A stretch of DNA of 64,000 bases from a virus (IMGVR_UViG_3300042197_002147:32001-96000), one strand, 5' to 3'; shown: positions 3,601 through 61,552, counted from the stretch's first letter. Program-made: numbers and translations. Notes: generated by a model not told the origin, from the letters alone.

Positions 3601-6600
3601 TTCTAGTAATTTGTCAATTATAAGAGTCAGTAACACTTCCCCTTCTATTTTTTCTATAACATCAAATATAGTAATACCACCAGAAACCGCATTTTCTGTA
3701 ACAGGAAGTGGTATAACAGATCCAGATCCTGCTGATGTATTACAATTTAAATGGGTTTTATCTAAATCGGATTCTTCTATTATAGAGGATACTGGTTGGC
3801 AAACACTATCTGGTTCTAGTGTGACATATACAAAATCTACTGGATTACCCGGAGCACAGACGAATCAAGTTTATTTTGTAGATCTTTTTGTAAAAGATCC
3901 AAACGAAAATGTAGCAACAAAAAGATGTACTGTAACCGTACAGAATAGTTTACCTATAATTGGTGTAACTTATGATACAGACATAAGTTCTCCTTTTGTT
4001 AAATTTATAAATGGAACTGATGCCAATCTTGGTCTTTTAGAAAAATTAATTTTAGACACCACAATTACTGCTTCTGATCCAGATGGTGGTTCTTTGACAT
4101 ACAATACAACAGTTTCTGGTGGTCCATTTTCGATAAATGGTCAAACTACTTCAAAACCAAAAATAGAACTATTGCAAAAGGGAAATTATTTAATATTCCA
4201 CACAGTAACTGATAATGAAGGTGGAACCGACTTCATTCAAAGTAATGTAGAAATTTTAGAAAATGAAAGACCTTCTATAAATTTTGATTCAACACAATCT
4301 TCTATTTTGTTTCCTTGCTCTGGTCAAAATTTAGTTGATGTAATTGCAACAGTTTCTGATACAGAAACGCCATTTTCTAATCTCACAAATGCTACAATTG
4401 TTCCGATTAGTTATCCATCAACACCACCAGAATTGATAGGTACTGTTCTAACAGACAATGGTTCAAGTGGTGACATAACAACTAGATTTAAAGTATTCAA
4501 CACAGGAACATATACATTTAAAGCATCTATAACCGAACCGGGAATAGATGACACTATTTCTCAAACAGTAGAAGCATCAACTACTATAACAGTATCTGCT
4601 GATCCTAACTTCAATCCTTCAATTCCACCCATATCCCCGATTACTGTTTCGAATCCAATTTCAAATTTCTTATTTACAATCAACGCTTTCGATGTCAACG
4701 GAATAAATCCATTATTATCCAATGTCAGACTTGAAACTGGTGCTGATCCGTATTTTAGAATTAATTCAACCACCACAACACAGCAGGGCGACAATACTAG
4801 TATACAATTTGTATTAGATATATCTGTTCTTTCCACCACTGTACCTAATGGTTTATATTCTCTTATTATAAAAATTATAGACAATTGTGGAAGATCTTTC
4901 GAACAAACATCTGGATTTGTTAATGTGCAAAATACAGCACCATCCGTAACCATAACAAACCCAACTCAGACCGTTGTTTCTTCAACACTTCCAGTAACAT
5001 TAAATTTGAGTGCAAGTGGTTATGATCCAGATGGTTCAACACTAATTTATAATTGGACATTGACTGGCCCAAGTACAACATACAATTTTTCAGCAAATAA
5101 TTCATCATCATCAAATAACACAATTTTAACTGGATTGAATAAAGGTGGCCAGCATCAAGTTTCTGTTACGGTAACAGATAGTTCTGGTTCTACATCTGTT
5201 CCGGCAGCAGTTACATTGAATGTGACGGATCCAAATCCTACAGCAAATGCAGGAAACGATTTATCAATAACATATCCAGATTTAACAACATTTCCTAAAA
5301 CTTTTTCATTAGATGGAACAGGAAGCACGGATCAATCTGGCGGTTCTATAAGTTTATATCAGTGGAGTATTATTTCCCAAAGCGGTTCTACAATTGAATT
5401 TGTTGGGTCAAATCAAATTTCTACACCAACGGTTAAGGTTAATGGTTTTGGAACATATACTTTATCTTTAGTAGTTACTGATAATAATTCAAATGTTTCC
5501 AGTCCAGATACTGTTACTTTAACTTTGTTAAGAGACATTGCACCAACAGTAAATTTGACCGCATCATCAACAAACATTACACTTCCAACAAATTCTATTA
5601 ATTTACAAATTAATACATCAACAGATGTAACTTCGGCAACAATAACAGAGGTGACTTCTTTTGGTGCTACAATAGTTTCACCCGTAAAACTAAATTCAAC
5701 AACTTGGCAAGCAACTATTAATAATTTGACAACAAATAGTAATGGTTCTTCTAGAAACTATACATTCAAGGCAACTGTAGATGATGGTGTAAATCCACCA
5801 GTTGATTCAAATCCACAAACAATAACAATAAACAATCAAATACCAACTGCCGAAATATTTATTCCATCTAGTACTTCTGGTGTTAATATGACAAGTAACT
5901 ACACATTTGGTATTACGGCATTTGCCGTTGACCCAGATGGTGGTTCTCTGGTAAATCCTGAATTTCTTATAACTACGGTTCCTCCAACATATACTGGAAG
6001 TGTTTTATTTGGTGCAATTTCCCAAAATGTAAGTACAAGCGGAACAACATATTCGGCACAATGCACGATAGCTGCACCAATAAAAATTGGAAATTATGGT
6101 TTTGCATTCATGATAACTGACAATGAAGGACAAACAGTTCAGTCTAATCCAAAAGAATTAATATTCACAAATCAAAGTCCTACAATAACAGCATCAAAAC
6201 TGGCACACATTATACCATTTCCAACAGTTACACAGTTCAATACATCTGTATATGGAATTTCGGTCACGGATCAAGATAATAATATAACATCAAGTAGATG
6301 GAGAATGAAAAGTGTTCCTTCTGGTGCAAATTCTGGATACTCCAATCCCTTATCATCGACTTCTTCATATTCTGATATTTTAATTCCATTTATTGATTCG
6401 CCGGCTCCGGTGGGTGGTACATATACTCTTGAATTACAAATTCAAGATTTGGGAGGAAGTGTAGTTAGTCAAGATTTTACTGTTAAAAGAAATCAAGCCC
6501 CAAATGTTAGTATTACAAATCCAGATCCAAACAATTCTGTAAATATAACATTACCTTCTACTCTTAATTTAACCGCAGTTGCAAATGATCCTGATGGATT

Positions 6601-27871: not shown

Positions 27872-28477
27872 ATGAAAAAGAAAAAGAAAAAAGAAGAATC
27901 AGTAGAAGAAATAATTCAGTCAGAAGAAAAGCAAATTAAAAATTTAAAACATTATATTGATAATGATAAGTTTTGTGATGCTATGATTGAATGGAAAAAG
28001 CAAGTAAGGGCAGCAGAAGCCTGCGACGATCCTAGACCACCAGTAACCGATTATATTGCTGAGTGCTTTTTAAAGATAGCAGAACATTTATCTTATAGAC
28101 CAAATTTTATTAATTATCCTTTTAGAGAGGATATGGTTGGTGATGGTATAGAAAACTGCCTATTATATGCCCATAATTTTGATCCTAAAAAATCAAGCAA
28201 TCCGTTTTCATATTTTACTCAAATAATTTACTATGCCTTTTTACGAAGAATAGAAAAAGAAAAGAAACAAGCTTTTGTTAAATATAAAGCTTTACAAATG
28301 ACTGATATGGATGGTAGATTCACAGAGTGGTTGAGAGAAAATCAAGGTTCTCATACATACAGTGAATTTTTACAGAAAACTTTTTTCTTGACAGAACAAG
28401 ACATCGACAAGATGGAACCAAAAGAAAAGAAAAGAAAAAAGAAGAAAAGAAAAAAGAAATCTAATTACTTTGATTAA
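27872..28477 (+). CDS. gp55: Late sigma factor gp55
   Basis: HYIDN, YIAECFLKIAEHLSYRPNFINYPFREDMVGDGIENC, NPFSYFTQIIYYAFLRRIEKEKKQ. Confidence 0.97.
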   Translation: MKKKKKKEESVEEIIQSEEKQIKNLKHYIDNDKFCDAMIEWKKQVRAAEACDDPRPPVTDYIAECFLKIAEHLSYRPNFINYPFREDMVGDGIENCLLYAHNFDPKKSSNPFSYFTQIIYYAFLRRIEKEKKQAFVKYKALQMTDMDGRFTEWLRENQGSHTYSEFLQKTFFLTEQDIDKMEPKEKKRKKKKRKKKSNYFD

Positions 28478-28480
28478 ATT

Positions 28481-29533
28481 ATGAAAATTGCAATAATAAA
28501 TGACACTCATTTTGGTGCAAGAAACGACTCACCGTTTTTTCTTGAGCAGTCTTTAGATTTTTTTGAAAAGACATTTTTTCCTTATTTAAAGGAACATAAA
28601 ATACAAAATGTACTTCATTTGGGGGATCTTTTAGATCGAAGGAAGTTTATTAACTTCAATACTTTAGCTCAAGTAAAGAAAAGATTTTTTAATCCATTAA
28701 TCGAAAACAATGTAAATATCCATATAACGGTTGGAAATCACGATACTTATTATAAAAATACAAATTCTTTAAATTCTTTAAGAGAACTTTTTTACAAAGA
28801 AAGTTCTTTTATTCACATTCACGAAAATCCTGTAGAGTTAAATTTTGACGGTTTATGCATTGGAATGATTCCGTGGATTGCAAAGGATAATGAACAAGAA
28901 TGTTTAACTTTTATAAAAAATTGTAAATGTCCAATAGTTGTTGGTCATTTTGAAATAAAAGGATTTCAAGTAATAAATGGAGTTGTTCATCCACACGGAA
29001 TTACTGAAAAAGAATTCAATCGTTTTGAGATGGTATTGTCTGGTCATTTCCATATGAAACAAAGTGGAAAAAACATTCACTATTTGGGAACACAATATCA
29101 ACTTAATTTTGGAGATGCAAATACTATAAAAGGATTTCATGTTCTGGATACAGTTACGAGAGAATTAGAATTTATAAAAAATCCGATAGAAATATTTCAT
29201 ACAATAAAATATGATGATGAGAAAGAAACAACCAAGAAGTTATTGATTTCTGATATTTCAAAATATAAAAATTGTTTTGTAAAAATAATTGTCTCGAATA
29301 AAACAAGAGCATATGATTTTGACAAATTTATAGATTCCTTGTATGCTGTCCCGGCACAAGAAGTTTCTATAATAGAGGATTATCAGGAAAAACAAACAGA
29401 AACAGATATTGATATTGCCGAGGATACACTTAGCATTATAAATAAAGAGATAGATAGTTTAGAGAGTATAGAAAACAAGACAAAGTTAAAGGTTCTTGTG
29501 AAAGATTTATATATGGAGAGTTTGACTTTATGA
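28481..29533 (+). CDS. gp47: Mre11-like recombination nuclease gp47
   Basis: DTHFG, HLGDLLDRRK, GNHD, GHFE, SGHFH. Confidence 0.96.
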   Translation: MKIAIINDTHFGARNDSPFFLEQSLDFFEKTFFPYLKEHKIQNVLHLGDLLDRRKFINFNTLAQVKKRFFNPLIENNVNIHITVGNHDTYYKNTNSLNSLRELFYKESSFIHIHENPVELNFDGLCIGMIPWIAKDNEQECLTFIKNCKCPIVVGHFEIKGFQVINGVVHPHGITEKEFNRFEMVLSGHFHMKQSGKNIHYLGTQYQLNFGDANTIKGFHVLDTVTRELEFIKNPIEIFHTIKYDDEKETTKKLLISDISKYKNCFVKIIVSNKTRAYDFDKFIDSLYAVPAQEVSIIEDYQEKQTETDIDIAEDTLSIINKEIDSLESIENKTKLKVLVKDLYMESLTL

Positions 29534-30345
29534 ACACAAATGAAATGCCAACAAAAGAAAATCGTCCAGATGTTTTTGATCCAAGTGTTTACCGGCCGGG
29601 AGAAAACGACATGGCTCCCATTTATGATGAATATGGATATCCGGCAAGACACTCACATAGTTACTATGTTTCTGCCTATATAAGAAAAGAAAATAAATTT
29701 GCAGTCAAAAACAAATTTATACAACCAAAGGTATATGTTGGTAAATCAAAAATAAGTGGGTTGGGTGTATTTGCTTCAGAGGATATTCCCGCAGGAGAAA
29801 TAATTGAACAATGTCCGGTTGTTTTGTTGGATACAACATTTCAACAAAATAAAGACTGGGTATTAAACAGGTACGCATTTACATGGGGATGTGGATGTCA
29901 GATATGTCAAAAACACGGTCATACAATGGCATTAGTTTTGGGAAATGGAATGATTTATAATCATTCGGAAGAACCAAACTCATATTGGACACAGGATACA
30001 GCATTAAAATATTTTACTTTACATTCTATTGTTGATATAAAGAAAGATGAAGAAATTGTTTGGTACTATGGTGCTGGATACTCTATGAGATTAAAGATGG
30101 AAGCAGCGATGACATTTGAAAGAGGAACGCCTGAGGGATGGCCCGGCGACGGTGCAAATCTACCAGCAAAGGGTTGCACATCTTGCGGGAACAATAACAA
30201 GCAACCAGAAACAGAACCAATTGAACTATTAAAAGAAGAAAATAATGAAACTGAAAATAAAAGTAATGCAGATCAACTACTTTTTAGGTCAATGGTTGTC
30301 CCGGAGAAAATTTTAAATGATAAAGTTCAAGAAGGTACGGTTTAA
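29530..30345 (+). CDS. SET-domain protein (putative protein-lysine methyltransferase)
   Basis: SKISGLGVFASEDIPAGEII (motif I), YNHSEEPN (NHS), DIKKDEEIVWYYG (ELxxxY-like). Confidence 0.88.
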   Translation: MNTNEMPTKENRPDVFDPSVYRPGENDMAPIYDEYGYPARHSHSYYVSAYIRKENKFAVKNKFIQPKVYVGKSKISGLGVFASEDIPAGEIIEQCPVVLLDTTFQQNKDWVLNRYAFTWGCGCQICQKHGHTMALVLGNGMIYNHSEEPNSYWTQDTALKYFTLHSIVDIKKDEEIVWYYGAGYSMRLKMEAAMTFERGTPEGWPGDGANLPAKGCTSCGNNNKQPETEPIELLKEENNETENKSNADQLLFRSMVVPEKILNDKVQEGTV

Positions 30346-32032
30346 AAATTTTGGATCTTTTGGTAACAATTTTACTGAACTAATTCTTGATAAAAATCCA
30401 ACAACACTAATATGTGGAAACAATGGAAGCGGAAAATCCTTCGCTTTCCTTGATTCCATTACTTTTGCGTTGTTTGGAAAACCTTTTAGAAAAATAAACA
30501 TACCACAACTTGTAAATTCTGTAAATGATAAGAATTGTCTAGTTGAAATAGAGTTTACTAAAGGAAATGATGAGTATTTAGTTCGTCGTGGGTTGAATCC
30601 AAAAGTATTTGAAATTCACAGAAATAATGTTTTAGTTAATCAAGATGCAAAAAGTCTTGATTATCAAGAGGTTCTTGAGGATCAAATCCTAAAGATGAAT
30701 TATAAAACATTTACTCAAGTTGTAATTCTTGGCAGTTCTTCATTTGTTCCTTTTATGCAATTGGCTGCTGCTGATCGTAGAGCAGTTATTGAGAATATTT
30801 TGGATATTAATGTTTTCAGTACCATGAATGTTTTGCTTAAGGGTAAAATGATGCAACTTAAGGAAATAATAAAAGAAATAACTAATAAAATAGAAATTGA
30901 AAACCAAAAAATATTATTACAATCTCAGTTTATTAGTACTCTTGAGAACAAAAGTAAAGAGGATAAAAAGGGTTTAAATGAAAAAACCAATTCTTTATCT
31001 CTAGAGATTCAGAATTTACAAATAGAAATTGACTCTCTAGACTTAGAAGTAAAAAATATATTAACTTCAGTTGAAGATGAAACTAAGACAAATAAATCAT
31101 TTTCTGATTTAGAAAAACTTAGAACAAAAATATACATTAATTTTAAGAATTTAGAAAAAGATATAGAATTTTTTGAAACAAATACATCTTGTCCTTCTTG
31201 CAATCAAAAAATAGATGAAACAATAAAAGTAGAGGAAGTAAAAAAGAAGGAAGAAAAAAGAAAAGAATACGAAAAAGCATTGAATGATCTTGATAATAAT
31301 ATTGAAAAAATTTCTGATAAAATAAAAGAAATTAAGGAAACCAATAAAAAAATTCAAGATTTAAATTTACAAATAGTTCAAAAGAAGACATCAATAAAAA
31401 ATGCAGAAAAATATCGTGAATCTCTCGTTAAAGAATTAAACGATATGGGTACATCGACAGAGCAAATAAAAGAAGAAATTAAAAAACTGGAAAATTTAAA
31501 ACAATTTATTGCTGGTCTTGAAAAAGAAAAAAATGAGCATAAAGAAGAATTATTGTATCACGAACATGCTCATATACTTTTGAAAGATTCGGGAGTTAAA
31601 GCAAAAATTATTAAGTATTATCTTCCTTATATGAACAAATATATTAATAAGTTTTTATCTTCTATGGATTTCTTTGCACAGTTTACACTTGACGAAGATT
31701 TCAATGAAAAAATTAAAAGCAGACACCGAGATGAATTTAGTTATATGAATTTCAGTGAAGGTGAAAAAATGCGTATAGATTTGGCCTTGTTATTGGCTTG
31801 GAGAGAAATAGCAAGAACAAAAAATAGTGTAAACTGCAATTTATTAATATTGGATGAGGTTTTTGATTCATCTTTAGATTCTCTTGGCATGGATGAACTT
31901 ATGAAATTACTGAATACAGTAAGTGATAAATCAAATATATTTGTTATAAGTCATAAGTCCGATCAATTAGTTGATAAATTTCAAAACTTAATTGGATTTG
32001 AAAAGAAAAATAACTTTAGCAAAATTATATGA
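30317..32032 (+). CDS. gp46: Rad50-like recombination ATPase gp46
   Basis: GNNGSGKS, CPSC hook, FSEGEKMRIDLALL, LDEVFD, ISH. Confidence 0.97.
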   Translation: MIKFKKVRFKNFGSFGNNFTELILDKNPTTLICGNNGSGKSFAFLDSITFALFGKPFRKINIPQLVNSVNDKNCLVEIEFTKGNDEYLVRRGLNPKVFEIHRNNVLVNQDAKSLDYQEVLEDQILKMNYKTFTQVVILGSSSFVPFMQLAAADRRAVIENILDINVFSTMNVLLKGKMMQLKEIIKEITNKIEIENQKILLQSQFISTLENKSKEDKKGLNEKTNSLSLEIQNLQIEIDSLDLEVKNILTSVEDETKTNKSFSDLEKLRTKIYINFKNLEKDIEFFETNTSCPSCNQKIDETIKVEEVKKKEEKRKEYEKALNDLDNNIEKISDKIKEIKETNKKIQDLNLQIVQKKTSIKNAEKYRESLVKELNDMGTSTEQIKEEIKKLENLKQFIAGLEKEKNEHKEELLYHEHAHILLKDSGVKAKIIKYYLPYMNKYINKFLSSMDFFAQFTLDEDFNEKIKSRHRDEFSYMNFSEGEKMRIDLALLLAWREIARTKNSVNCNLLILDEVFDSSLDSLGMDELMKLLNTVSDKSNIFVISHKSDQLVDKFQNLIGFEKKNNFSKII

Positions 32033-32760
32033 GTGATGAAATTAATCCATATCCAGTAATAGAAAAGCATGACGGTTTTTATGTTGTTCGTGATGATTTG
32101 ATTGAAGGCGGATCTAAAACAAGATTTATCCAGACTCTTATCAAAGAATCACAACAAAATGAAATGGTTTATGGATCTTCTCCTGCAACTGGTTATGCAC
32201 AAATTGCACTTGCTAGAGTTTGCGAACACTTCAATAAAAAGTGTATATTGTTTATGGCTAAAAGAAAACCAGAGAATCTTCATCCTTACCAGTTGAAAGC
32301 AATTAAACATGGTGCTATAATTCATGGTGTAGACAACGGTATGCTTACTGTAACACAGAAAAGAGCAAGAGATTATGTTGCTTTGGACAGCACCAATAGA
32401 AAATTATTTCCTATTGGTTTTGATTGTCAAGAAGTAATTTTAGAAATTTGCGAATTAGCAAAGGATCTACCAATAGAACCAAAAGAAGTATGGACAGTTG
32501 GTTCTAGTGGAACTTTAACAAGAGGTCTACAGATGGCTTGGCCAGATGCAGAATTTCATTGTGTTTCAGTTGGTCATAAGATGGGACAGAAGGAACTAGG
32601 AAGAGCAAAAATGTACAAATGTGAAATTCCTTTCTTTGAAGCAGTTGATGCTGCTGATGCGCCTCCTTTTCCTTCTGCTCCCACTTATGACGCAAAAGCA
32701 TGGAAGTTTATAAAAGAATATGCTTCACCCGGTGCATTATTTTGGAATGTGGGCGCATGA
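32029..32760 (+). CDS. PLP-dependent enzyme, fold type II (ACC deaminase/cysteine synthase-like)
   Basis: VVRDDLIEGGSKTR (Schiff-base Lys), VGSSGT phosphate loop, YDAKAW, LFWNV. Confidence 0.82.
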   Translation: MSDEINPYPVIEKHDGFYVVRDDLIEGGSKTRFIQTLIKESQQNEMVYGSSPATGYAQIALARVCEHFNKKCILFMAKRKPENLHPYQLKAIKHGAIIHGVDNGMLTVTQKRARDYVALDSTNRKLFPIGFDCQEVILEICELAKDLPIEPKEVWTVGSSGTLTRGLQMAWPDAEFHCVSVGHKMGQKELGRAKMYKCEIPFFEAVDAADAPPFPSAPTYDAKAWKFIKEYASPGALFWNVGA

Positions 32761-34334
32761 AACCATTTTATGAAAGAAATGATTATCTTTTAAATCATAA
32801 AATCAATGTTCTTTTTGAGGACATTGTTTCTATGAATGACTCGGAGTTTGAACAATGGGTAAAAGATATGCGTAAAGTTGTTCTTTATGCCTGGAATAAT
32901 CACAATTGCCCACCCAGAACAGGTAAAAACGAAAATGATATTGTAGAAGAGTTTAACAAACTCACTGGATATCCTATTCACACATTTGAATTTATTGATG
33001 AGTTAACAGAAACAAAAGATGTAGTTATTAACAAATCTCGTCTTGGTGCAGAAGTAGATCAATGGTTTCCAAATATGTACAAGACTAGAATTAACTACAG
33101 TGAAAATGACACTGGTTATTCTATTTACGATTTGTTTGCAGATGACAAATATCTTCCAAGAATGATAAAAGGAACTCGTCGTCATATTCGTAGAGATTCG
33201 CTTTACACATTTGCTTGTTCTGCAATAAAGCATGACACTAAGTATGCAATTGTTTCTGTTGGAAGCGGTGAGGAATGGATGGATGCATACTTTAATAATC
33301 CATCAATTTTTAAGGATCACGATTTTATATTAGATCAGCACGATGATGAAGATGGTGTCAATACTGGTTATTATCAAATTGAACAATCAAAAATTCTTTC
33401 TTTAACAAAAGAACAGTTTTTAAAATGGAAACCAAAATTATCTTATCGTCACTATTCTACTTTTGATTCAGAAAATATTGAAGATGATAAGATTTTTAGA
33501 ATAAGAGTATATGAAAAGGGTCATAGAGTCTTTCCTAAATGTTTTCCTAGTTTTAGGATAGGTTATATTCAACCCGCAGTTAATTTTCCGCCACTAACGG
33601 CAAGGTATCTTTATGAAAAATTTACGGAATCTTTTTACACACAGAATCAAATTGTTATTTTCGATCCTTCTTCTGGCTGGGGTGGTCGCATTCTTGGTGC
33701 CATGTCTGTCAATGACAATCGAAATATTCACTATATCGGGACTGATCCTAACTTGGATAACTTCGATTCTAGTCTTGGTGATTCTGGTAAGTACGGTTGT
33801 GTTGCTGATTTCTACAATACTCGAACTTATAGAGGAAATTCGTTTTTCTCGTCCACAAATACTTACGAAATTTTTAAAGTTGGTTCGGAAGTAATTCACA
33901 AAGAAAACAATTTTCAGAAATATAAAGGAAAGATAGATTTAATTTTTACATCTCCTCCATATTTTAATAGAGAAGCTTATTCTGAAAATGAAAACCAATC
34001 TTATAAGAAATTCGATAATTACGATTCGTGGAGAGATGGATTTCTCAAGCAAACACTACAAACATGTGTTGAGTATTTAAAAAATCAACGCTATCTTTTA
34101 TGGAATATTGCCGATATACAAATTTCTGGTAAATATTTGCCTCTAGAAAAGGACTCTAGAGATATACTTGAAAGTCTTGGAATGAAATATGTTCAAACTA
34201 TAAAAATGGCAATGGAAGGGATGCCTGGTCAAAATCGTTTAGACGAAGATGGCAAACCAAAGTGCAAAAATTTTTGCAAAGTAAACGGAAACTATTTGAA
34301 ATTTGAACCAGTGTTTGTATACTATAAACCATGA
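32757..34334 (+). CDS. SAM-dependent amino-methyltransferase-fold DNA-modifying enzyme (N6-A/N4-C type)
   Basis: FDPSSGWGGRILG (SAM binding), YIGTDPN, FTSPPYF (motif IV); ATG 32757 overlaps the upstream stop (ATGA). Confidence 0.85.
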   Translation: MKPFYERNDYLLNHKINVLFEDIVSMNDSEFEQWVKDMRKVVLYAWNNHNCPPRTGKNENDIVEEFNKLTGYPIHTFEFIDELTETKDVVINKSRLGAEVDQWFPNMYKTRINYSENDTGYSIYDLFADDKYLPRMIKGTRRHIRRDSLYTFACSAIKHDTKYAIVSVGSGEEWMDAYFNNPSIFKDHDFILDQHDDEDGVNTGYYQIEQSKILSLTKEQFLKWKPKLSYRHYSTFDSENIEDDKIFRIRVYEKGHRVFPKCFPSFRIGYIQPAVNFPPLTARYLYEKFTESFYTQNQIVIFDPSSGWGGRILGAMSVNDNRNIHYIGTDPNLDNFDSSLGDSGKYGCVADFYNTRTYRGNSFFSSTNTYEIFKVGSEVIHKENNFQKYKGKIDLIFTSPPYFNREAYSENENQSYKKFDNYDSWRDGFLKQTLQTCVEYLKNQRYLLWNIADIQISGKYLPLEKDSRDILESLGMKYVQTIKMAMEGMPGQNRLDEDGKPKCKNFCKVNGNYLKFEPVFVYYKP

Positions 34335-35446
34335 AATCTGAAACTGAAGAGATTTTTTACGGCAAGCAACCGAATTGGAAGCATTGGAAGCCGGAAGATT
34401 ATAAAGATGAAGACAAAGTTTATTGGTCTATTGCTTTAGCATTAAATTGGTACAATACAAAATTTACAGACAGGGACTACAAAGCAAGTGTTATCGAATA
34501 CATGGAAAAAAATAAAATTCCAGGCGTCGATATGGTTGCCAAGGTTCCTGTTGATAATTTTACTTTTAGAGTTATTGGAGGAAAGTGTCAGGCAAATCTT
34601 TGTCATTGCATTTTACCAATAAAAATAAAAAATGCTGTAAAAGAAGGAATAGAACAACTAATTATTCTTGGCAAAACTCTAGAAACTACAAATACACCAA
34701 TTGTACCAGTTCGTGAAAGGGTTCGTCAGCAATCTTATGAACTTGGTAGCATTCTTGAACAAAAAATTGATGAATATGAAGAATATATTTTGGGTAAAAA
34801 ACCAAATTATAAACTTTTTAATATTGAAAATTGGATAAACGAAAACGAGCCAAGTGCCATGCATTGCGAGTTTTTACTTGAATGCTTTGAGAGAGGCACA
34901 AATGAATTTAAACTTGTAGTTGATGGAAAGGATGATCAACTAAAAGAAGCATATTCTTTTTTGACAAAAAAGCAAGCACAGAAAATGCACGACTTTTATA
35001 AGTCTATTTGCGATCATTTGAGAGTTCGTATTACTATTGCAAAAAGTAATCGTAAACCAAGAAAGAAAAAGAAAAAGAAACCAGAACAATTAGTCAAAAA
35101 GTTAAAATATTTGGTTAAAGATAACACCACAGGTATAGAATCAATACTTCCAGATTCTATTATTGGTAGTCAGACTGTTATAGTTTTTAACACAAAAACA
35201 AACAAAGCAAGTATGTTTAAGGCCGATTCAAATGGTTCGGGTTTGAGCGTAAAGGGTTCTACTATTATTGGTTTTAGCACCGAGTCAGTAGAAAAGAAAA
35301 TGAGAAAACCAGTTGAATTTATGACAAAGGCAAAAAGTGAAGGAATTCGTAGCATAAATAACTACTGGAAGTCACAAAAAACAAAAGAAAGTCAACCAAA
35401 AGGTAGAATTAACGCTCATACACTTATTCTTAAATCATTCAAATGA
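34331..35446 (+). CDS. Hypothetical protein with basic C-terminal domain
   Basis: 371-aa ORF coupled by ATGA overlaps; RKPRKKKKKKPEQLVKKLKY...GRIN. Confidence 0.75.
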   Translation: MKSETEEIFYGKQPNWKHWKPEDYKDEDKVYWSIALALNWYNTKFTDRDYKASVIEYMEKNKIPGVDMVAKVPVDNFTFRVIGGKCQANLCHCILPIKIKNAVKEGIEQLIILGKTLETTNTPIVPVRERVRQQSYELGSILEQKIDEYEEYILGKKPNYKLFNIENWINENEPSAMHCEFLLECFERGTNEFKLVVDGKDDQLKEAYSFLTKKQAQKMHDFYKSICDHLRVRITIAKSNRKPRKKKKKKPEQLVKKLKYLVKDNTTGIESILPDSIIGSQTVIVFNTKTNKASMFKADSNGSGLSVKGSTIIGFSTESVEKKMRKPVEFMTKAKSEGIRSINNYWKSQKTKESQPKGRINAHTLILKSFK

Positions 35447-35766
35447 TTAATAAAACAGATAATTTAAGATTTGTTGGACCATATAAAAAATATGACGCGA
35501 ATGGTAAACTTATTGATTATAATATTGGCGATACCGTCGATTTTGATGGTATCTATTATGCCGCAACAAAAGAAATTCTAGGATTAAATCCTTTATCTAA
35601 AAATAGCGGTTGGGAAAAAGTTGGAGACATTGATCCGAATAGATTTTTTTCACAAACAACAGAACCAATTACTAAAAAGGTTGGAGATAGATGGCACAAT
35701 CCATCAACAAGTATAACATATACTTTGATAAAAGATAATAATGGTTATCATTGGGTAGAAATGTAA
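35443..35766 (+). CDS. Small protein with a CBM5/12-like carbohydrate-binding motif
   Basis: YNIGDTVDFDGIYY.A...P...GW and P..GDRW..Y..WV motifs. Confidence 0.55.
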   Translation: MINKTDNLRFVGPYKKYDANGKLIDYNIGDTVDFDGIYYAATKEILGLNPLSKNSGWEKVGDIDPNRFFSQTTEPITKKVGDRWHNPSTSITYTLIKDNNGYHWVEM

Positions 35767-35795
35767 TTGACATTTGAAAAAAAAATTGATATAAT
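35767..35795 (+). promoter_or_regulatory. Consensus sigma70 promoter TTGACA-17-(TG)TATAAT, 7 nt before the rnh ATG
   Basis: Exact hexamers at 35767-35772 and 35790-35795. Confidence 0.8.
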
Positions 35796-51811: not shown

Positions 51812-54258
51812 GATCAGCGGTAGAACATCATTTTACAGGTTTGACAGCAGGATTTACTGGTGGGCTTCCAGCTGTAGGCGTTACTGCTGGATATGATTCA
51901 ACAAAAACATTAATTTCTTCTTTGTTGCGTCAAGCCACGGGATCAAACTACGAAGACAAGTACATCTCCGCAAAACCATCTACTATTGTCAACATCCCCG
52001 AAGTGTTTACTTCAGGTACACAAGCATACCCGTTTGTGTATAAATGGTCTGACAACATTTATTGGGTATTCACGGCATCAAATGCTACTGCCGCCGCTAC
52101 GAGAACTATTGCCCTTACCGAATTCAACTCAACAAATTCAACCCTGACATACAAGGGGTTCATCACGCTACTCGGAACTACAGTTTCGGGTAGCAAGACT
52201 GTTCGTTCTTTACGAGCAATGGTCTACAAGCACACAACAGGAACAGTTTCAACAAGCGGTTCATCCACCACAATTTCAGGATCTGGAACGGGGTTTACGG
52301 ATGAACGAATTGCTGTGGGAGCAAGAATCGGTTTTGGAACCACCGATCCAACCGCAGTTACTACATGGTATGAAATCACGGCAATCACGGATAACACCAC
52401 TCTAACGATAAATGCACCCGTAACACTTTCAGCAGGAACTTCGTATGCCATAGAGGAGATTCGCATTGCTCTTGCCTGCACTCAATCAGGTACGGGTACT
52501 GTAGTTCTCAACAGCGGTTTGCATTACATCAAGGGATTAAACTATAGCACATTTACAAACGGTGGAACTAACATCCCAGAGGCAACAACCGTAGACAACA
52601 TTCGTGCCTCGTATCTCCTGACCGATGCAAGAATCAACGGAGATGATATACAGACATTTACGGTTACGATTGCTTCACCCGCAGTAGTGACTTGCAACAG
52701 CCACGGATTGAGAAATGGCGATGTCGTAATTCTCACGACAACTGGTGCATTGCCAACAAACTTGACTGCATCACCTACTACTGCTGCAACTCCATATTTC
52801 GTTATCAACGCATCCACAAACACATTTAATCTCTCAACGACACTCAACGGCACGGCAATCAATACAAGCGGTTCTCAGAGCGGAACTCATACTCTGCACT
52901 CCCATGCAAAAAATGTAAGCGCAACTTTGGCAATAGATGATGAGGTCAGCAAAACAGACCACAGCATCTACATGGTTTCTACATATGGCACGGCTTGTTC
53001 TATAACAGAGTATAATCTACGAGCAGCACTTACTGTTGGTGCAATGGGATCGTTTATAACCGCAGGAACTTCAACAAGTGCATATGTGCTATCTACCACA
53101 ACACAAGCGGTTACGGGAACACCTTCACAGGTAAATTCTGGAAGAATATTTACAGTAAACCACGGCTCTGCGTCAGGAGTAAAGTCTTTGTGGTTTGTGA
53201 CAACAACGAGAGTATATCGTGTTCCTGACGCAAACATAACCGATGGTTCTGTAAACTGGCTTGTGGATGCAATGCTTGAAGTTCCACCTGGAGGTAGCGT
53301 TACATACACTGCTCTTAGTAATATGTCTCAGGTGGATTATTCCTCCACAATTGATCGTTTGTTTGTCACAAACGCGAGTGGTCGTTTTGGTGTTTATATT
53401 ACGCCATATACAACTGATGGAAGTCAGTTTGAAAAATATATTGGTGCAAACCTTAACAGATTAAAACTTACCACAACACCAAGTGGTGCAAGTGATGGGT
53501 TGTTTCCGCAGACTACGCTTACACTTTGGACAGAAGACGGATGGATGTTTGTTATTCCAAACTCAACTACCTCGGGACAAAACTGGTTATATGTGTTCCC
53601 CTTTGGTACGGATGCTTACTACAACAGCACAACAAACCAACACATCATCACACCCAAACTTGCAACCACGGGTGCGACCAAACTGTATCACGCCTATGTT
53701 GACCACATGGAATACGCAGGAGATTACGGGCTTGGATTCCCCGTTGAGTCCTACAAGTTGTGGTATCGCACAAGCGGCATAGACGACAATAGCGGTGCGT
53801 GGACGGAAGTTCCCGTTGGAGCGGACTTGGACGCTGCTGCGGTGGGCGACTACATTCAATTCAAGATTGCATTTGACATTTTGGGCGAGATTTGCGCTCC
53901 AACACGCATCTACTCCATAGCAGCAACATACGAGGACAACTCGCAGGATTCGCACTATCAGCCTTCCTTGGCGAAGTCATCCACGGCAAGCAAGATATTC
54001 GCATGGAGACAGGTCGCAGCATGGGGATCGAACATCCCGAACCTTCGCATTCGGCTCTATGATGCAACGACAAACAACGAGTTGCTGAACGATACCGTGA
54101 CGAACTCTTCCTACGGAACATGGCAGTATTCCACGGATGGAACCAACTGGTTGTCGTGGAGTTCTTCTGCGGATGCAATCGGAAATTACATTCGCTATAC
54201 CGCAACCAACTTCGGCTACAGCGGAGTCACCGTCAGGGCATTGCTGACACAGGCATAA
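51808..54258 (+). CDS. Thr-rich virion structural/tail-associated protein
   Basis: 816 aa, beta-rich; ASPAVVT..HGL..GD.V motif common in phage tail proteins; coupled to the fibre gene. Confidence 0.7.
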
Positions 54259-54259
54259 A

Positions 54260-54400
54260 ATGGACGATATCATATTTTACAGCGCATATTTCTACTTTGA
54301 GATGCCGGTATTAGATCCGGGTACTATTAATTTAATTGAAGCACAAAGCACATACTACACTCTGAGACTTGCTTTACCAGAAAGAATAAGTATTTCATAA
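54260..54400 (+). CDS. 46-aa small protein absent from the ORF track (MDDIIFYSAY...ERISIS)
   Basis: ATG 54260 to TAA 54400 fills the gap with 1-nt spacing on both sides. Confidence 0.6.
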   Translation: MDDIIFYSAYFYFEMPVLDPGTINLIEAQSTYYTLRLALPERISIS

Positions 54401-54401
54401 T

Positions 54402-57185
54402 ATGTCCAATTTTCCTTCCAATCCATCAACTGGAGCAACCTTTAATGTGTTGGGTAAAGGTTGGATATATGATGGATACGGTTGGGCGGCATTAGACGAT
54501 ATTATCGGAATTTCTGCTGGAAATCAGATTGCAATAACAATAACTGGTCAGGCTCCAGCAGGACCAACATATACAATAGATGTAATTGATGGTGCAACCA
54601 GTGATTTACATGCTGGTGTGGTTTATGGTGTTTCTGGAAGCATTTATGCATCTAGTCTTGCAACTGGTCTTTTGCACGGTGGCATTATTACAATAAATGC
54701 AGGAAATAGTGCTGCTTTTGATATTACATCTGGTAGTGGTCAAATTCATAGTTCTGGATCTACATACACAGCAGATCCACAACCAACATATCAATATGTT
54801 ACATGGCCAGCACAAACTGGAATTACTTTACAATACCTTTCTTCTTCGGATACAACTTGGATTTACATAGACTCGTCTGGTACTGTGCAACAAAGATCAT
54901 CGTACTATACTGATAATCAATTAGAAGAAAATATAATCATAGGACAGCTGGTTCACCCGTCAAGAACTTTTATTAATCTTGCAAGAACAAATCCAAATGT
55001 TGCATATGCAACAGACAAACAGTATGAACAATTTATTCGTATTTTTGGACCAGTAAAGGGATCTGGTCATACCATACAACCAAACGGAGCAAATCTGAAA
55101 TTAAACAGGACTTCAGGTACGGCTTTCAGTCTTGGAAGAAACTGGATCAATGACACAAATAATCCGAGTGTGGTTTCGGATGGTGCATATACTGATTGTA
55201 TTTTCTATCGTTACTATCGTGGTGCTACTGCTGGAACATTTATCACCGTACCAAATCAAACTGCAATTGATCCTACAAATTATGATGATGGAAGCGGAAC
55301 ACTTCAATCGCTGCCTGGTGGTAAATATAGTATTCAAAGAATATTTTATTACCCAAATACACCAAGTCTTTTGGGTGTATATTACGGAAGAGCACAATAT
55401 ACAAGTTTGGCCGAAGCAGCAGCAAATATTAATTTTGAAGATTTTACAGAAATTGAAAATACAAGAACAAATGCAATTTTCGTTGCAACATTAATAGTCA
55501 AATCCGGTGCTACCGATTTGACAAACACGAATGATGCTTTAATACTACAAGCCGGTGCTTTTAGAAGCACAATTAGTGGCGGTGGTTCTGTTGCAACTAA
55601 ATTCGATGATTTAACTGATGTCGTAATTACGGGCGTACAGGATGATCAAATAATAATATACAACAGTGCAACATCACAATGGGAAAATACAAATTCCTCT
55701 CATGTTTCTGTTACATCCTACAATGGTCGTACTGGTGCTGTTCAGGGTGTTTCGGCGGCCGCGGCCGGATCTGGTATTAGTGTTTCTGGTGCAACAGGTG
55801 CTGTGACTATAACAAATACTGGTGTTCAAAGTTTTAATGGATCTACCGGAACAATCACGGGTGTTTCCAGTATCCGTGGATTAACTGGTGCCGTAGGAAT
55901 CACCAACGGCAGTGGAATAGGTCTGAGTGTTTCTGGTCAAACAATGACCTTTAGCAACACCGGAGTTTTGAGTATTGACGGTGGCACTGGTGCGATTACA
56001 TATGTTGCCCGTACAAATGTTGCAAATACTTTTACTGCTAGTCAGACTATAGAAGGTTTAGGAAGAGTATTATCAATAAACGACGCAAACGCAAATATAT
56101 TTACAGCATATTCAAGTCAATTAGAATGGTATAATGATCTTTCGAGCACAAGTCAATACTGGGTTCCTTCTCCAGGACCAAATCCGAGCACAATTACTTT
56201 TCCAAACGAAAATGGTACAATAGCACTTACAAAAAATGTGGTTAGTTCTTTTAATGGTCTGACGGGTGCAATTGTCGGTGTTAATAGTGTCCGTGGTTTA
56301 ACTGGTGCAGTAGGAATCACCAACGGCAGTGGAATCGGTCTGAGTGTTTCTGGTCAGACAATGACCTTCAGCAATACTGGTGTTTTGAGCATTAATGGTA
56401 GCACTGGTGCCATTACGAATGTTGCTAGAACTAATGTAGACAATTTTTTTAATGCAAGTCAAACAATAAGCGCAGCAAATGCTGTTCTGGCAATTGTGGA
56501 TTCCTCTTCCTTCAACGAAGTATCATTTCAGGGAGAATTTAACAGGTTATACTTTTATAATGATCTGTCTGGTGGAGAGGTATTTTTTCAACCAACTATT
56601 GCACCAGCAAGCACAATAACCGTATCTCTTCCAGATTACAGCACAACCCTAGCAGGACTTGCAGGCACACAAATTTTTACAGGAACAAATACTTTTAGTG
56701 CTCTTACAAACTTTCCCAGTGGTATTAGTGCTGCTGGTGCAACCTTCAGTTCACTTGTAAGATTTAATGCAGGAATCTCTGCATCTGGTGGCATTACATT
56801 TAATAGTGATGTTACTATAAATTTATCAAACAATCTTAATGTTGGTGGCATACAATCTAACAAATCTGCATTGGAAATAGATACAGCCAGAGTAGATTCC
56901 AGAGTTGCAATGGGTGATTACACTGCACTTGGAAATTCAACTTTTATTTATCTTAGAAATGCTACAAGTGAATTACAATTAAGCAATCCTTTTGGTGTCA
57001 TAACTATAGGTGATCCGGATGGTTATAATAGCGGTTATTTTATTGGTTATGATGCAAGCAATGGTAATTTATATGGTAATGCTTCAGTAATAAGTGATTT
57101 TAGTACAATAAGTTCTAATAATGGATTTTATGAAACTGCAAATTCAATCAGAGTGACAAACAATGCTAGGAGTTGGTTTTTATGA
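54402..57185 (+). CDS. Tail fibre protein with internal repeats
   Basis: N-terminal FPSNPSTG...W.YDG..W; repeated V.S.NG.TGAV units; LTDV...DDQIIIYNS..QWEN. Confidence 0.8.
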   Translation: MSNFPSNPSTGATFNVLGKGWIYDGYGWAALDDIIGISAGNQIAITITGQAPAGPTYTIDVIDGATSDLHAGVVYGVSGSIYASSLATGLLHGGIITINAGNSAAFDITSGSGQIHSSGSTYTADPQPTYQYVTWPAQTGITLQYLSSSDTTWIYIDSSGTVQQRSSYYTDNQLEENIIIGQLVHPSRTFINLARTNPNVAYATDKQYEQFIRIFGPVKGSGHTIQPNGANLKLNRTSGTAFSLGRNWINDTNNPSVVSDGAYTDCIFYRYYRGATAGTFITVPNQTAIDPTNYDDGSGTLQSLPGGKYSIQRIFYYPNTPSLLGVYYGRAQYTSLAEAAANINFEDFTEIENTRTNAIFVATLIVKSGATDLTNTNDALILQAGAFRSTISGGGSVATKFDDLTDVVITGVQDDQIIIYNSATSQWENTNSSHVSVTSYNGRTGAVQGVSAAAAGSGISVSGATGAVTITNTGVQSFNGSTGTITGVSSIRGLTGAVGITNGSGIGLSVSGQTMTFSNTGVLSIDGGTGAITYVARTNVANTFTASQTIEGLGRVLSINDANANIFTAYSSQLEWYNDLSSTSQYWVPSPGPNPSTITFPNENGTIALTKNVVSSFNGLTGAIVGVNSVRGLTGAVGITNGSGIGLSVSGQTMTFSNTGVLSINGSTGAITNVARTNVDNFFNASQTISAANAVLAIVDSSSFNEVSFQGEFNRLYFYNDLSGGEVFFQPTIAPASTITVSLPDYSTTLAGLAGTQIFTGTNTFSALTNFPSGISAAGATFSSLVRFNAGISASGGITFNSDVTINLSNNLNVGGIQSNKSALEIDTARVDSRVAMGDYTALGNSTFIYLRNATSELQLSNPFGVITIGDPDGYNSGYFIGYDASNGNLYGNASVISDFSTISSNNGFYETANSIRVTNNARSWFL
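55873..56437 (+). repeat. Intragenic duplication of ~150 nt at 417-nt offset
   Basis: 55873-56020 vs 56290-56437; both encode RGLTGAVGITNGSGIGLSVSGQTMTFSNTGVLSI.G.TGAIT.VARTNV. Confidence 0.9.
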
Positions 57186-58894
57186 GAACAAGGTCAAATC
57201 GCTTAAATAATGGTTATATTGGAGATTATACTGCTCACGATGATGTAACAGGTGTAGTTAGTTTAAATAAAAAGTATCTTGTAAACGATTATAGTGCCGA
57301 AACTACTTGGGTTAGACCGTCACAGTGGAGACAAGGACCAAGTGTTTCTGAGGGTGAACAAAAAATTGTAATCACAAATGCAGTGTATAACACGGATAAT
57401 AATTTTACTGCATTTACAATGAGTGGAAATTTTGCAGTAGATTGGGGTGACGGTACTACAGGAGCTTTTACTTCACTTAATACTGCATCAAAAAATTATG
57501 ATAAAACTACCTATGCTGGTCTTACCAGTGATGTTTTTAGAGGATATAAGACTTTAAACATCGTTATTACACCACAGGCTGGAGCTACATTCAACGGTCA
57601 ATTAAATTTGGCAGTAAAACATCCACAGTCAGGATTACAAAGTTATTATTCTAATGGATATCTTGAAATAATAATGTCCGCACCATTTATGACCGGACCA
57701 ATTACAATTTCAGATACAACATTTAACAACAGATCAGCTTCTAGATTATTGGAACATTTTAGATGGATCGGAAATTCAAGTTTAACTTCAATAGGTGCAT
57801 CTTTTATTGGTTGCAATAATCTTAAAATTATAAGTGCATTTCCTTCAACTAGAAATTGTACAGATTTTCAGAGTTTGTTTCACAGTTGTCACAGCTTAGA
57901 ATGGATACCACCAACTATATGTGAAACTGGAAATGCTACAGTTTTAGCATTTATGTTCTATTTGTGTACAGCTTTAAAAAGAGTTCCCGGAACATTTAAC
58001 ACAAGCAAGGCAACTTCAATGACACAGTTGTTTCAAGATTGTACAATGTTAAAAAGAATACCAGCAATCGACACATCAAAAGTTACAGGTTCAAATATGG
58101 CTGGATTGTTTGCTGGTTGTTTTTCTATAGAAACAATACCGGGAGAAATTAATGCTCAAAATGCAACAGCTTTAAATGCTTTGTTTCAAAATTGCAATAA
58201 TTTAAGAAAATTACCTAAAATAATAAACACCTCCAATGTAACTAATTTTTCAGCAATGTTTAATGGAACTAGAGCAATAGATGTTATACCTTACTTCGAT
58301 ACAAGTAAAGGAACAGATTTTTCTAGTATGTTTTCTGTTACTGGTGCTCGAAAATTTGATGATGCATGGGGCCTTACATTTAACATGCCCCAAGCAACAA
58401 GAACTGATAACATGTTTAGATTTACTAGAACTTTAGAAAGAGTACCCAATACATTTGTTACTGGTGCAACTCTTACAAACTGTTCAGAAATGTTCTATGA
58501 GTGCTATTCATTAACAAATTGTCCCACTATTACAAATATTTCAAATTGCACAAACTTAACAGGAATGTTTTATAATTGTCGTGCAATTAAGGAAATTCCA
58601 ACAATGACTATTTCAAATAATGCAAACAATTATGGTGGAACGGCTACTACTACTAGAATGTTTTATCAAAATTGGAACTTAAGTTCATGTGGATTAACAG
58701 GATTTACCGGAGCAAATGTTTCATTTGAAGCTTGTTCTCTTGGTGCTACAGCCTTAAATGATATTTATAGAAGTTTAGCTGTTGTTGGTGCTTCTGGTGC
58801 TGGTGTGCGTACTATTACTGTAACTGGAAATTGGGGAACCGCAGCAGATGATACTATGATTGCAATAGCAAAAGGATGGGCAGTATCGGGGTAA
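57182..58894 (+). CDS. BspA/DUF285-like leucine-rich-repeat surface protein
   Basis: Repeats such as FNTSKATSMTQLF, NTSNVTNFSAMF, FDTSKGTDFSSMF; VDWGDG; ATG overlaps the upstream TGA. Confidence 0.8.
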   Translation: MRTRSNRLNNGYIGDYTAHDDVTGVVSLNKKYLVNDYSAETTWVRPSQWRQGPSVSEGEQKIVITNAVYNTDNNFTAFTMSGNFAVDWGDGTTGAFTSLNTASKNYDKTTYAGLTSDVFRGYKTLNIVITPQAGATFNGQLNLAVKHPQSGLQSYYSNGYLEIIMSAPFMTGPITISDTTFNNRSASRLLEHFRWIGNSSLTSIGASFIGCNNLKIISAFPSTRNCTDFQSLFHSCHSLEWIPPTICETGNATVLAFMFYLCTALKRVPGTFNTSKATSMTQLFQDCTMLKRIPAIDTSKVTGSNMAGLFAGCFSIETIPGEINAQNATALNALFQNCNNLRKLPKIINTSNVTNFSAMFNGTRAIDVIPYFDTSKGTDFSSMFSVTGARKFDDAWGLTFNMPQATRTDNMFRFTRTLERVPNTFVTGATLTNCSEMFYECYSLTNCPTITNISNCTNLTGMFYNCRAIKEIPTMTISNNANNYGGTATTTRMFYQNWNLSSCGLTGFTGANVSFEACSLGATALNDIYRSLAVVGASGAGVRTITVTGNWGTAADDTMIAIAKGWAVSG

Positions 58895-59463: not shown

Positions 59464-59895
59464 ATGTTAAAAATATATCGAATTCAAGAAAATGCAGTTT
59501 TTCCAAGATTTGCAACAGAGCAATCTGCTTGCTTTGACATTTCTGCACACGGAAATCATTTTATACCAGCACACCATTCTATGGCGATTCCAACTGGACT
59601 AATTTTAGATATTCCAGTTGGTCACTCGGTTAGAGTTCACCCAAGATCTGGTTTGGCATATAAAAAGGGAATTACACTTTTAAATGCTGAAGGAATTATT
59701 GATTCAGATTACACAGATGAATTAAAAATTATATTATTCAATACTTCAAATTTGGATTTTGTCATAAATCACGGAGATCGTATTGCTCAAGGAGAATTAG
59801 TGAAAAGTCTTGACTATACGATTGAAGAATGCTATACTGCGCCAACCCAAAAAACCGACAGAGTTGGTGGTTTTGGTAGCACAGGCGTTCAATGA
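59464..59895 (+). CDS. dut: Trimeric dUTPase
   Basis: SACFD, PRSGLA, GIIDSDY, GDRIAQ, RVGGFGSTG. Confidence 0.96.
   Translation: MLKIYRIQENAVFPRFATEQSACFDISAHGNHFIPAHHSMAIPTGLILDIPVGHSVRVHPRSGLAYKKGITLLNAEGIIDSDYTDELKIILFNTSNLDFVINHGDRIAQGELVKSLDYTIEECYTAPTQKTDRVGGFGSTGVQ
59810..59838 (+). promoter_or_regulatory. Internal promoter TTGACT-17-(TG)TATACT within dut, upstream of the second MTase
   Basis: Near-consensus hexamers, 17-nt spacer, extended -10. Confidence 0.6.
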
Positions 59896-61185: not shown

Positions 61186-61539
61186 ATGACAAGAGATGAA
61201 TTATTGGCTTATCATTCGGAATTGTGTGCAGATGCAAAGGCATTAATGAGTTTAAAAAATAAAGATTATGCTGGAAACGAAGGCATAGAACCATTTGCAA
61301 ATTTTACAAGAGTAGAGGCAATGGGCATTTGCAAAACAGAACAAGGATTTATGGTCAGACTCACCGATAAGATGAGTCGTCTTTCTTCCTTTATTCGTGC
61401 AGGAAAAATGCACATAAAGGACGAATCGTTCAAAGACACTTGCATTGATGTAATCAACTATATGGTTCTTCTTGCCGCATATTTAAAAGATAAAGAGCAA
61501 TCTGACAAGAATAATATTGGTACAACAAATAAATCTTGA
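61186..61539 (+). CDS. DUF1599/Nmad1-like (nucleotide-modification-associated, all-alpha) protein
   Basis: KNKDYA...PFANF...VRLTDKMSRL...ESFKDTCIDVINY. Confidence 0.72.
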   Translation: MTRDELLAYHSELCADAKALMSLKNKDYAGNEGIEPFANFTRVEAMGICKTEQGFMVRLTDKMSRLSSFIRAGKMHIKDESFKDTCIDVINYMVLLAAYLKDKEQSDKNNIGTTNKS

Positions 61540-61545
61540 TATAAT
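61517..61545 (+). promoter_or_regulatory. Sigma70-like promoter TTGGTA-17-(TG)TATAAT, 7 nt before the gp43A ATG
   Basis: Hexamers at 61517-61522 and 61540-61545. Confidence 0.65.
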
Positions 61546-61552
61546 AACTTTC

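Follow-up and report, generated by a model that had tools for sequence, protein, structure and literature searches.

A pyridoxal-phosphate enzyme coupled to an amino-methyltransferase-fold protein in an uncultured T4-type virus: a candidate pathway for DNA base hypermodification

Why does a virus with a T4-type replication block encode a pyridoxal 5'-phosphate (PLP) enzyme directly in front of a protein that resembles a DNA methylase? This question is raised by a stretch of 64,000 nucleotides (the window), which comprises bases 32001–96000 of the 156.7-kb uncultured virus record IMGVR_UViG_3300042197_002147. Two open reading frames (ORFs) are concerned, a PLP-like gene for 243 residues at 32029–32760 and a methyltransferase (MTase)-like gene for 525 residues at 32757–34334. 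Both lie on the plus strand and are joined by an ATGA overlap (32757–32760, plus strand), in which the stop of the PLP gene and the start of the MTase gene can be read directly. The initial annotation had described a fold-type-II PLP enzyme joined in this way to an SPPY-type S-adenosylmethionine (SAM) enzyme inside a replication operon, and the ORFs, the junction and the folds were all confirmed. It is probable that the pair performs a coupled DNA modification larger than a methyl group. A more specific scheme is put forward tentatively, with chances that we judge to be somewhat short of even. It is a coupled post-replicative hypermodification of DNA bases which does not proceed via 5-hydroxymethyluracil (hmU), and in which a 3-amino-3-carboxypropyl (acp) group is first attached and then decarboxylated.

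The two proteins and their coupling

The hidden Markov model (HMM) of the PLP family matches gp52 of Pseudomonas phage M6 from end to end with 43 bits. In hhalign the comparison with M6 gp52 reached 98% probability and an E-value of 2.2e-13 over 213 columns (residues 18–277 of 278). Both proteins fall into phrog_7093, the PLP protein with an E-value of 2.5e-40 and M6 gp52 with 3.6e-159, and the C-terminal motif PFPxxPxYDxKAW...FWNxG is common to the PLP family and gp52. The gp52 gene is located in the M6 genome beside genes for an amino-acid:DNA transferase, a radical-SAM protein and a 5-hydroxymethyl-deoxyuridine (5-hmdU) kinase. In the hhalign alignment Lys30 of the PLP protein falls on Lys36 of M6 gp52, which has been proposed as the aldimine lysine of that enzyme (PMC8989533). 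Decarboxylation of C-alpha-glycinyl-thymidine in DNA has been demonstrated for purified M6 gp52 (Lee et al., NAR 2021, PMC8989533). As judged from these alignments, the assignment of the PLP protein as a full-length homologue of M6 gp52, a proven decarboxylase of DNA-tethered amino acids, holds. The connection that the initial annotation had drawn to phage decarboxylases of amino-acid adducts on DNA is thus borne out by HMM, hhalign and PHROG homology to gp52, whereas a deaminated adduct, which it had offered as another outcome, finds no support beyond the fold resembling 1-aminocyclopropane-1-carboxylate (ACC) deaminase.

An AlphaFold2 model of the PLP protein, built on 32 family members, has a predicted local distance difference test (pLDDT) score of 93.4 and confirms the predicted fold type II. 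Its best solved matches are D-cysteine desulfhydrase (4d8t) and an ACC-deaminase homologue (1j0a), with Foldseek E-values of 1e-11 to 3e-10. The Pfam PALP match is weak (22.3 bits, under the 35-bit cut-off), the PLP family profile retrieves only TrpB and cysteine synthases from the PDB (E ~1e-3), and single-sequence PDB searches with the PLP and MTase proteins were uninformative. The predicted Schiff-base lysine is Lys30 (codon 32116–32118, plus strand) in the motif GGSKTR; it is invariant in the 32 family members, whose alignment gives GG[ST]K.R as the family form of the motif. According to alignment and model, a Gly-rich loop GSSGT (residues 158–162; 32500–32514, plus strand) opens the helix 162–170, and in the family alignment G161 is invariant and S160 at least 90% conserved. 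Presumably this is the PLP phosphate-binding loop, by analogy with fold-type-II enzymes. The same alignment yields the C-terminal family signature PPFPS.P.YDAKAW...FWNVG. With more than 1,200 clusters at 90% identity the PLP family is large, and the 156.7-kb record encodes only this one PLP enzyme.

The 525-residue protein matches the Pfam family N6_N4_Mtase (PF01555) with 31.5 bits, over the cut-off of 26.7. Its catalytic domain (33549–34334, plus strand) belongs to the class I SAM-dependent amino-methyltransferase fold with motif I before motif IV, and in the structure comparison the C-terminal ~260 residues, which adopt this fold, gave a VIA Z of 15.9 to aTrm11. Motif I, the SAM-binding loop, reads DPSSGWGGR (D303–R311; 33663–33689, plus strand), with D, P, G, W, G, G and R invariant in the alignment. 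Motif IV, the catalytic loop of exocyclic-amine methyltransferases, is identified by alignment as TSPPY (T398–Y402; 33948–33962, plus strand), and its extended form FTSPPYF is invariant among the aligned homologues. We take FTSPPY to fit the signature of N4-cytosine MTases (PROSITE N4_MTASE pattern). All PLP-linked MTases carry Ser or Cys before PPY (TSPPYF or SCPPY), never DPPY or NPPY. The MTase family comprises more than 2,000 clusters at 90% identity. A paralogue without a PLP partner is encoded in the same window between the dUTPase and DNA polymerase genes (59892–61181, plus strand, 429 residues). It is 27% identical over the catalytic domain and carries the motifs DLSMGWGDR and FTSPPYY.

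The start at 32757 is the one common to the homologues, which open with MK.FYERN in the family alignment; an alternative upstream ATG at 32700 gives a product of 544 residues. The long N-terminal region mentioned in the initial annotation was found as well and amounts to ~265 residues before the catalytic domain (approximately residues 1–264; 32757–33548, plus strand). These residues have no match in Pfam, PHROG or NCBIfam. In the ESM Atlas they retrieve unnamed viral clusters only (0.82), and the VIA search with the whole model was dominated by the MTase domain. Since the region is kept in the T4-like clade and is absent or replaced in shorter relatives, it is probably a module for DNA binding or target recognition.

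The co-occurrence survey that had been named as a check shows that the pair is conserved, in all 71 informative viral loci and in 58 of the 80 bacterial ones. An MTase homologue lies on the strand of the PLP gene in 71 of 80 viral contigs, that is in all those with at least 2 kb beyond the PLP gene, and the remaining nine contigs end at most 1.9 kb from it. The MTase gene is usually located directly downstream, sometimes upstream or one inserted gene away; in Microcystis phage Mae-JY30 it overlaps the start of the PLP gene. In related phages the module is always placed between gp46 and the gp45 block, with the PLP and MTase genes as the constant core of an otherwise variable island, whose extras are 2-oxoglutarate (2OG) domains of the Asp/Asn-hydroxylase type, other 2OG oxygenases, a glutamine-synthetase-type ligase and giant ORFs. 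On contigs from bacteria and metagenome-assembled genomes, mostly Rhodobacterales and other Alphaproteobacteria, the adjoining genes are arranged in the order MTase, PLP, and the MTase is of the SCPPY type; these loci are probably prophages. Altogether the pairing was seen in three unrelated phage lineages, and the cultured phages with the module are Erythrobacter phage vB_EliS-R6L and Microcystis phage Mae-JY30.

In addition, about 40 proteins fuse PLP and MTase domains in at least three architectures. In P0125 a TSPPY MTase is followed by the PLP domain, and in P0126 an Asp/Asn-hydroxylase-type 2OG domain stands between the MTase and the PLP domain. In about 35 ParB-MTases, including gp1 of Erythrobacter phage R6L, the PLP domain is inserted between motifs I/II and III/IV. 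A quick tree placed M6 gp52 on a long outgroup branch and grouped the T4-type PLP proteins with those fused to TSPPY MTases (SH-aLRT 98); therefore, the PLP domain tracks the MTase subtype. Because of the near-absolute co-occurrence and the repeated fusion, the two genes form a functional unit. A predicted complex of the 525-residue protein with the PLP protein had a score of 0.00, but this run was made without controls and counts neither way.

Several variants of the locus were observed among the relatives. Family PLP domains are fused in P0128 and P0165–P0167 to a domain with a weak YunG-like match, which is not a methylase, and some of these YunG-like-fused proteins carry long low-complexity tails rich in Lys and Ala. 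Between the PLP and MTase genes of locus L030 lies a gene for a 353-residue glutamine-synthetase-type protein (Gln-synt_N + Gln-synt_C; L030:8714–9772), and an ORF of the same size occupies this position in L049. The L030 protein may be an amide ligase by which the modification is extended. Giant ORFs without a Pfam match are found between the two genes in L004 (6776–10573, 1265 residues) and L034 (2113 residues). In R6L (L001) a gene resembling 3'-phosphoadenosine-5'-phosphosulfate (PAPS) reductase is located at 3810–4853 of the record and precedes the gene for the ParB-MTase-PLP fusion by a few genes.

Proposed chemistry and competing explanations

If the PLP enzyme acts on an amino acid tethered to DNA, which enzyme installs it? 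Matches to PF18748 (5-hmdU DNA kinase), PF18724 (amino acid:DNA transferase) and PF00303 (ThyA-type hydroxymethylase) were not found in the 156.7-kb record. Hence, the initial statement that no hmU kinase and no amino-acid:DNA transferase is visible in the window holds across the entire record, which is estimated to be ~70% complete. Since the kinase, the transferase and the ThyA-type gene are missing from it, SAM is the only visible amino-acid donor. The window contains the minimal two-gene form, and the fused ParB-MTase-PLP forms leave no room for another installer because they are self-contained.

We propose that the 525-residue protein, whose class I fold is intact, binds SAM and presents the exocyclic amine of a flipped-out base to the TSPPY loop. 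The target would most likely be N4 of cytosine, else N6 of adenine. The acp arm of SAM would be transferred instead of or besides the methyl group, and methylthioadenosine would be released. An acp group is proposed because a methylase-fold enzyme holds just one amino acid, the methionine part of SAM. TYW2 is an example of a methyltransferase fold that can move the acp arm of SAM to a nucleobase. The PLP enzyme would then, by way of Lys30, form an aldimine with the alpha-amino group of this adduct, and after removal of CO2 the DNA would contain an N-(3-aminopropyl)-base. The same product could result from the reverse order, if the PLP enzyme decarboxylated SAM to decarboxylated SAM (dcSAM) and the aminopropyl group were transferred thereafter. 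In some lineages 2OG oxygenases or glutamine-synthetase-type ligases may carry out further tailoring, and the genes for such enzymes in relatives fit the tailoring of a side chain that bears an amine or a carboxyl group. The acp adduct would be nearly equal in length to O-seryl-thymidine, the substrate in phage ViI. The scheme of acp transfer and subsequent decarboxylation is chemically coherent, with an exact enzymatic precedent in MccD and MccE.

What we infer is that DNA is the target, and also which base is modified, which group is transferred and what product results. That the chemistry is specifically an aminopropylation is possible rather than probable. The claim that this would be the first SAM-derived acp or aminopropyl modification of DNA, located on N4 of cytosine (or N6 of adenine) and yielding a cationic base without an hmU or 5-hydroxymethylcytosine (hmC) precursor, is more tentative again.

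A number of observations weigh against the proposed scheme. On the side of the PLP enzyme, ViI gp226, the other proven decarboxylase, is only marginally similar (16.8 bits), and the fold also supports beta-replacement, deamination and elimination. For about one in five bacterial PLP homologues no MTase could be detected in the neighbourhood. The neighbours of these divergent homologues are cupins, a fatty-acid hydroxylase-type protein, thioredoxin and proteins of no assigned function; no ADDT was found in five genomes that encode them, and the neighbour survey revealed no common alternative partner. On the side of the MTase, the best structural matches are ordinary methyltransferases (Trm11, TrmN and Trm14). 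PLP-less relatives from Staphylococcus Twort-like, Bacteroides DAC and Vibrio phages (among them Staphylococcus phage Alsa_2, Bacteroides phage DAC16 and Vibrio phage 2.058.O) are ~30% identical and are annotated as methylases on similarity only, and no characterised member of the TSPPYF/GWGGR clade came to light. These relatives and the paralogue at 59892–61181 share the motifs G[WF]GxR and TSPPYF..E.Y, and the comparison of PLP-linked with PLP-less MTases gave no signature in motifs I and IV that would separate acp from methyl transfer. Moreover, the record encodes neither a methylthioadenosine/S-adenosylhomocysteine nucleosidase (PF01048), which could relieve product inhibition, nor an AdoMet decarboxylase (PF02675), and with the record incomplete the absence of the hmU genes is not absolute.

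The main rival explanation takes up several of these points. In this case the 525-residue protein would be a normal MTase producing N4-methylcytosine (m4C) or N6-methyladenine (m6A), and the PLP enzyme would act with it on DNA by another chemistry. This is consistent with catalytic motifs that are the same as those of the PLP-less relatives annotated as methylases, and with structural neighbours that are methyltransferases. Beta-replacement is one option, by which the PLP enzyme might couple an amino acid to the base. Fold-type-II PLP enzymes are classic catalysts of this reaction, enzymes of the cysteine-synthase family make uracilyl- or pyrazolyl-alanine in this way, and the best solved matches of the PLP protein are a desulfhydrase, a deaminase and a cysteine synthase. 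However, the closest characterised homologue is no synthase and decarboxylates amino acids that are already tethered to DNA. Alternatively, the PLP enzyme might process an adduct provided by the host or by an unrecognised enzyme, in which case methylation would be a step of its own or serve for tailoring. The variable extra genes in the islands of relatives (2OG oxygenases, glutamine-synthetase-like ligase, genes of no assigned function) would be in line with this, but the two-gene and single-polypeptide forms leave no other conserved installer of an adduct, and a methyl group offers the PLP enzyme nothing to act on. We therefore regard this explanation as unlikely, though it is the most serious competitor of acp transfer followed by decarboxylation.

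A minor rival places the target outside DNA, and we consider it decidedly improbable. The pair could modify tRNA or rRNA or a protein amide, or it could deplete or convert SAM in the service of anti-restriction or metabolic takeover. The top structural matches of the MTase domain are indeed tRNA N2-methylguanosine (m2G) methyltransferases and HemK-type protein methylases, a SpoU RNA methylase is encoded in the same window, and aldimine formation between the PLP enzyme and free SAM is conceivable. Nevertheless, the Pfam family that scores above its cut-off is the DNA methylase family N6_N4_Mtase, the invariant catalytic loop is one for an exocyclic-amine acceptor, and in many of the fusions the N-terminal domain is a DNA-binding one of the ParB type. 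The position of the genes among recombination and replication genes and the action of the homologue M6 gp52 on polymeric DNA also argue for a DNA target.

Chance adjacency of an ordinary MTase and an unrelated metabolic PLP gene, the alternative that the initial annotation had allowed for, could be suspected since both domains come from very common superfamilies and the PALP match stays under its threshold, but it is contradicted and ruled out by the pairing in every informative viral locus across three lineages, by the repeated fusions in several architectures and by PLP tree groups that follow the MTase subtype.

Genomic setting

The surroundings of the pair are a T4-type replication and recombination block on the plus strand, with the order gp55, gp47, SET protein, gp46, PLP, MTase, 371-residue protein, 107-residue protein, RNase H, gp45, gp44 and gp62. 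The late sigma factor gp55 is encoded at 27872–28477, gp47/SbcD at 28481–29533, the SET-domain protein at 29530–30345 and gp46/SbcC at 30317–32032, all on the plus strand. The stop of gp46 and the start of the PLP gene share an ATGA (32029–32032, plus strand), and the same arrangement, read likewise in the sequence, links the stop of the MTase gene to the start of the gene for the 371-residue protein (34331–34334, plus strand). This protein (34331–35446, plus strand) belongs to phrog_11903 and contains a lysine-rich stretch; by its ORF coordinates its gene shares 4 bases with that of the 107-residue protein (35443–35766, plus strand). Both genes are kept downstream in most related T4-like contigs and are absent from the fused and prophage forms. 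A scan for promoters and terminators gave counts no higher than in shuffled sequence; two perfect sigma-70 consensus sites stand out in it, one at 35767–35795 and one before gp45.

The SET protein comprises 271 residues (Pfam SET, 52.6 bits), and its gene overlaps both gp47 and gp46. SET domains are protein lysine methyltransferases. A homologue is found at the same position in many related phage contigs.

By gp46 the nearest cultured relatives are cyanomyoviruses, with ~46% identity. Near-identical DNA occurs in freshwater, lake and estuary metagenome contigs from a dozen studies, and homologues with ~60% identity are frequent in samples from the sea, among them those of Tara.

Elsewhere in the window the family B DNA polymerase (gp43) is split. 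An ORF for 504 residues (61517–63031, plus strand) encodes the exonuclease and the N-terminal part of the polymerase, and the rest of the polymerase domain is found in a separate frame of 374 residues ~4.5 kb downstream, at 99563–100447 of the record and past the end of the window. Among the genes between the two parts is that of the SpoU-type methylase (63064–63615). A patch of elevated G+C content (0.41–0.46 versus ~0.30 elsewhere) extends from 52001 to 56000 and covers the start of an ORF for 927 residues (54402–57185) without a Pfam match, which is followed by a DUF285 repeat protein of 573 residues (57173–58894).

Significance and comparison with known systems

To our knowledge, all characterised phage DNA hypermodifications of the amino-acid type start from 5-hydroxymethyl-pyrimidines that are made at the nucleotide level. 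Full-text literature searches turned up no account in which a DNA methylase-fold enzyme is paired with a PLP enzyme, and no report of acp or aminopropyl bases in DNA, including phage DNA. In the R6L genome paper gp1 is called a CcrM-like methylase and the inserted PLP domain is not mentioned, and a 2026 paper on diaminopropane-thymine concerns the hmU route. If our proposal is true, DNA would be hypermodified by a second route that is independent of the first. This route would start from an ordinary base in finished DNA, probably cytosine or adenine and not thymine, and would require no more than SAM and two enzymes, one of the methylase fold and one dependent on PLP. Members of the PLP and MTase families are encoded in bacterial genomes and by T4-like phages that abound in the sea and in freshwater, and the modification would then be widespread in aquatic T4-like phages and alphaproteobacterial phages and prophages. 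Since both families are large and widespread, the reading of methylase genes in viromes would change, and sequencing, restriction and defence evasion of these phages would have to be interpreted differently. In addition, a compact tool consisting of two enzymes or of a single polypeptide would become available for placing primary amines on DNA.

The MTase shares with the N4-cytosine and N6-adenine DNA methyltransferases of PF01555 the class I fold, motif I, the acidic motifs II and III and the (S/D/N)PPY loop. In contrast to them it has a PLP enzyme as partner or fusion, its motif IV is always TSPPY or SCPPY when PLP-linked, and it carries the N-terminal region of 265 residues, which belongs to no known family.

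With M6 gp52 and ViI gp226 the PLP protein has in common the truncated, ACC-deaminase-like build of fold type II, and with M6 gp52 also the aligned Schiff-base lysine, the C-terminal motif and the PHROG. In M6 and ViI, as here, a phage-encoded PLP gene adjoins a gene for the enzyme that presumably installs the substrate. The adducts of these two phages, however, derive from 5-hmdU by way of a 5-hmdU DNA kinase and an amino-acid:DNA transferase, whereas the present virus has an amino-methyltransferase-fold protein as partner. The PLP protein is furthermore only ~28% identical to M6 gp52, which the tree sets apart from the MTase-linked group on a very long branch.

Transferases that place acp on RNA are TYW2, which acts in wybutosine formation, and Tsr3 and TapT, which form acp3U or acp3-pseudouridine. 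The proposed reaction would share with them the transfer of the acp arm of SAM to a nucleobase, but their targets are RNA, no decarboxylation follows, and no homology to them was detected in the searches run here.

MccD and MccE of the microcin C pathway provide an analogy of mechanism only, since the acceptor there is a peptide-nucleotide phosphoramidate and not a DNA nucleobase. The PLP domain of MccE is of a different PLP fold type, and MccD (PDB 5FCD) is not among the Foldseek and VIA matches listed, which comprise the top 50. In that pathway MccD, an enzyme of the MTase fold, transfers acp from SAM, and together with the N-terminal PLP decarboxylase domain of MccE this results in aminopropylation (PMC10491745). 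Whether acp transfer or the formation of dcSAM comes first is still debated (PMC10491745). The phage pair resembles this system in both respects, in that an MTase-fold enzyme is paired or fused with a PLP enzyme and in that the order of the two steps would be ambiguous.

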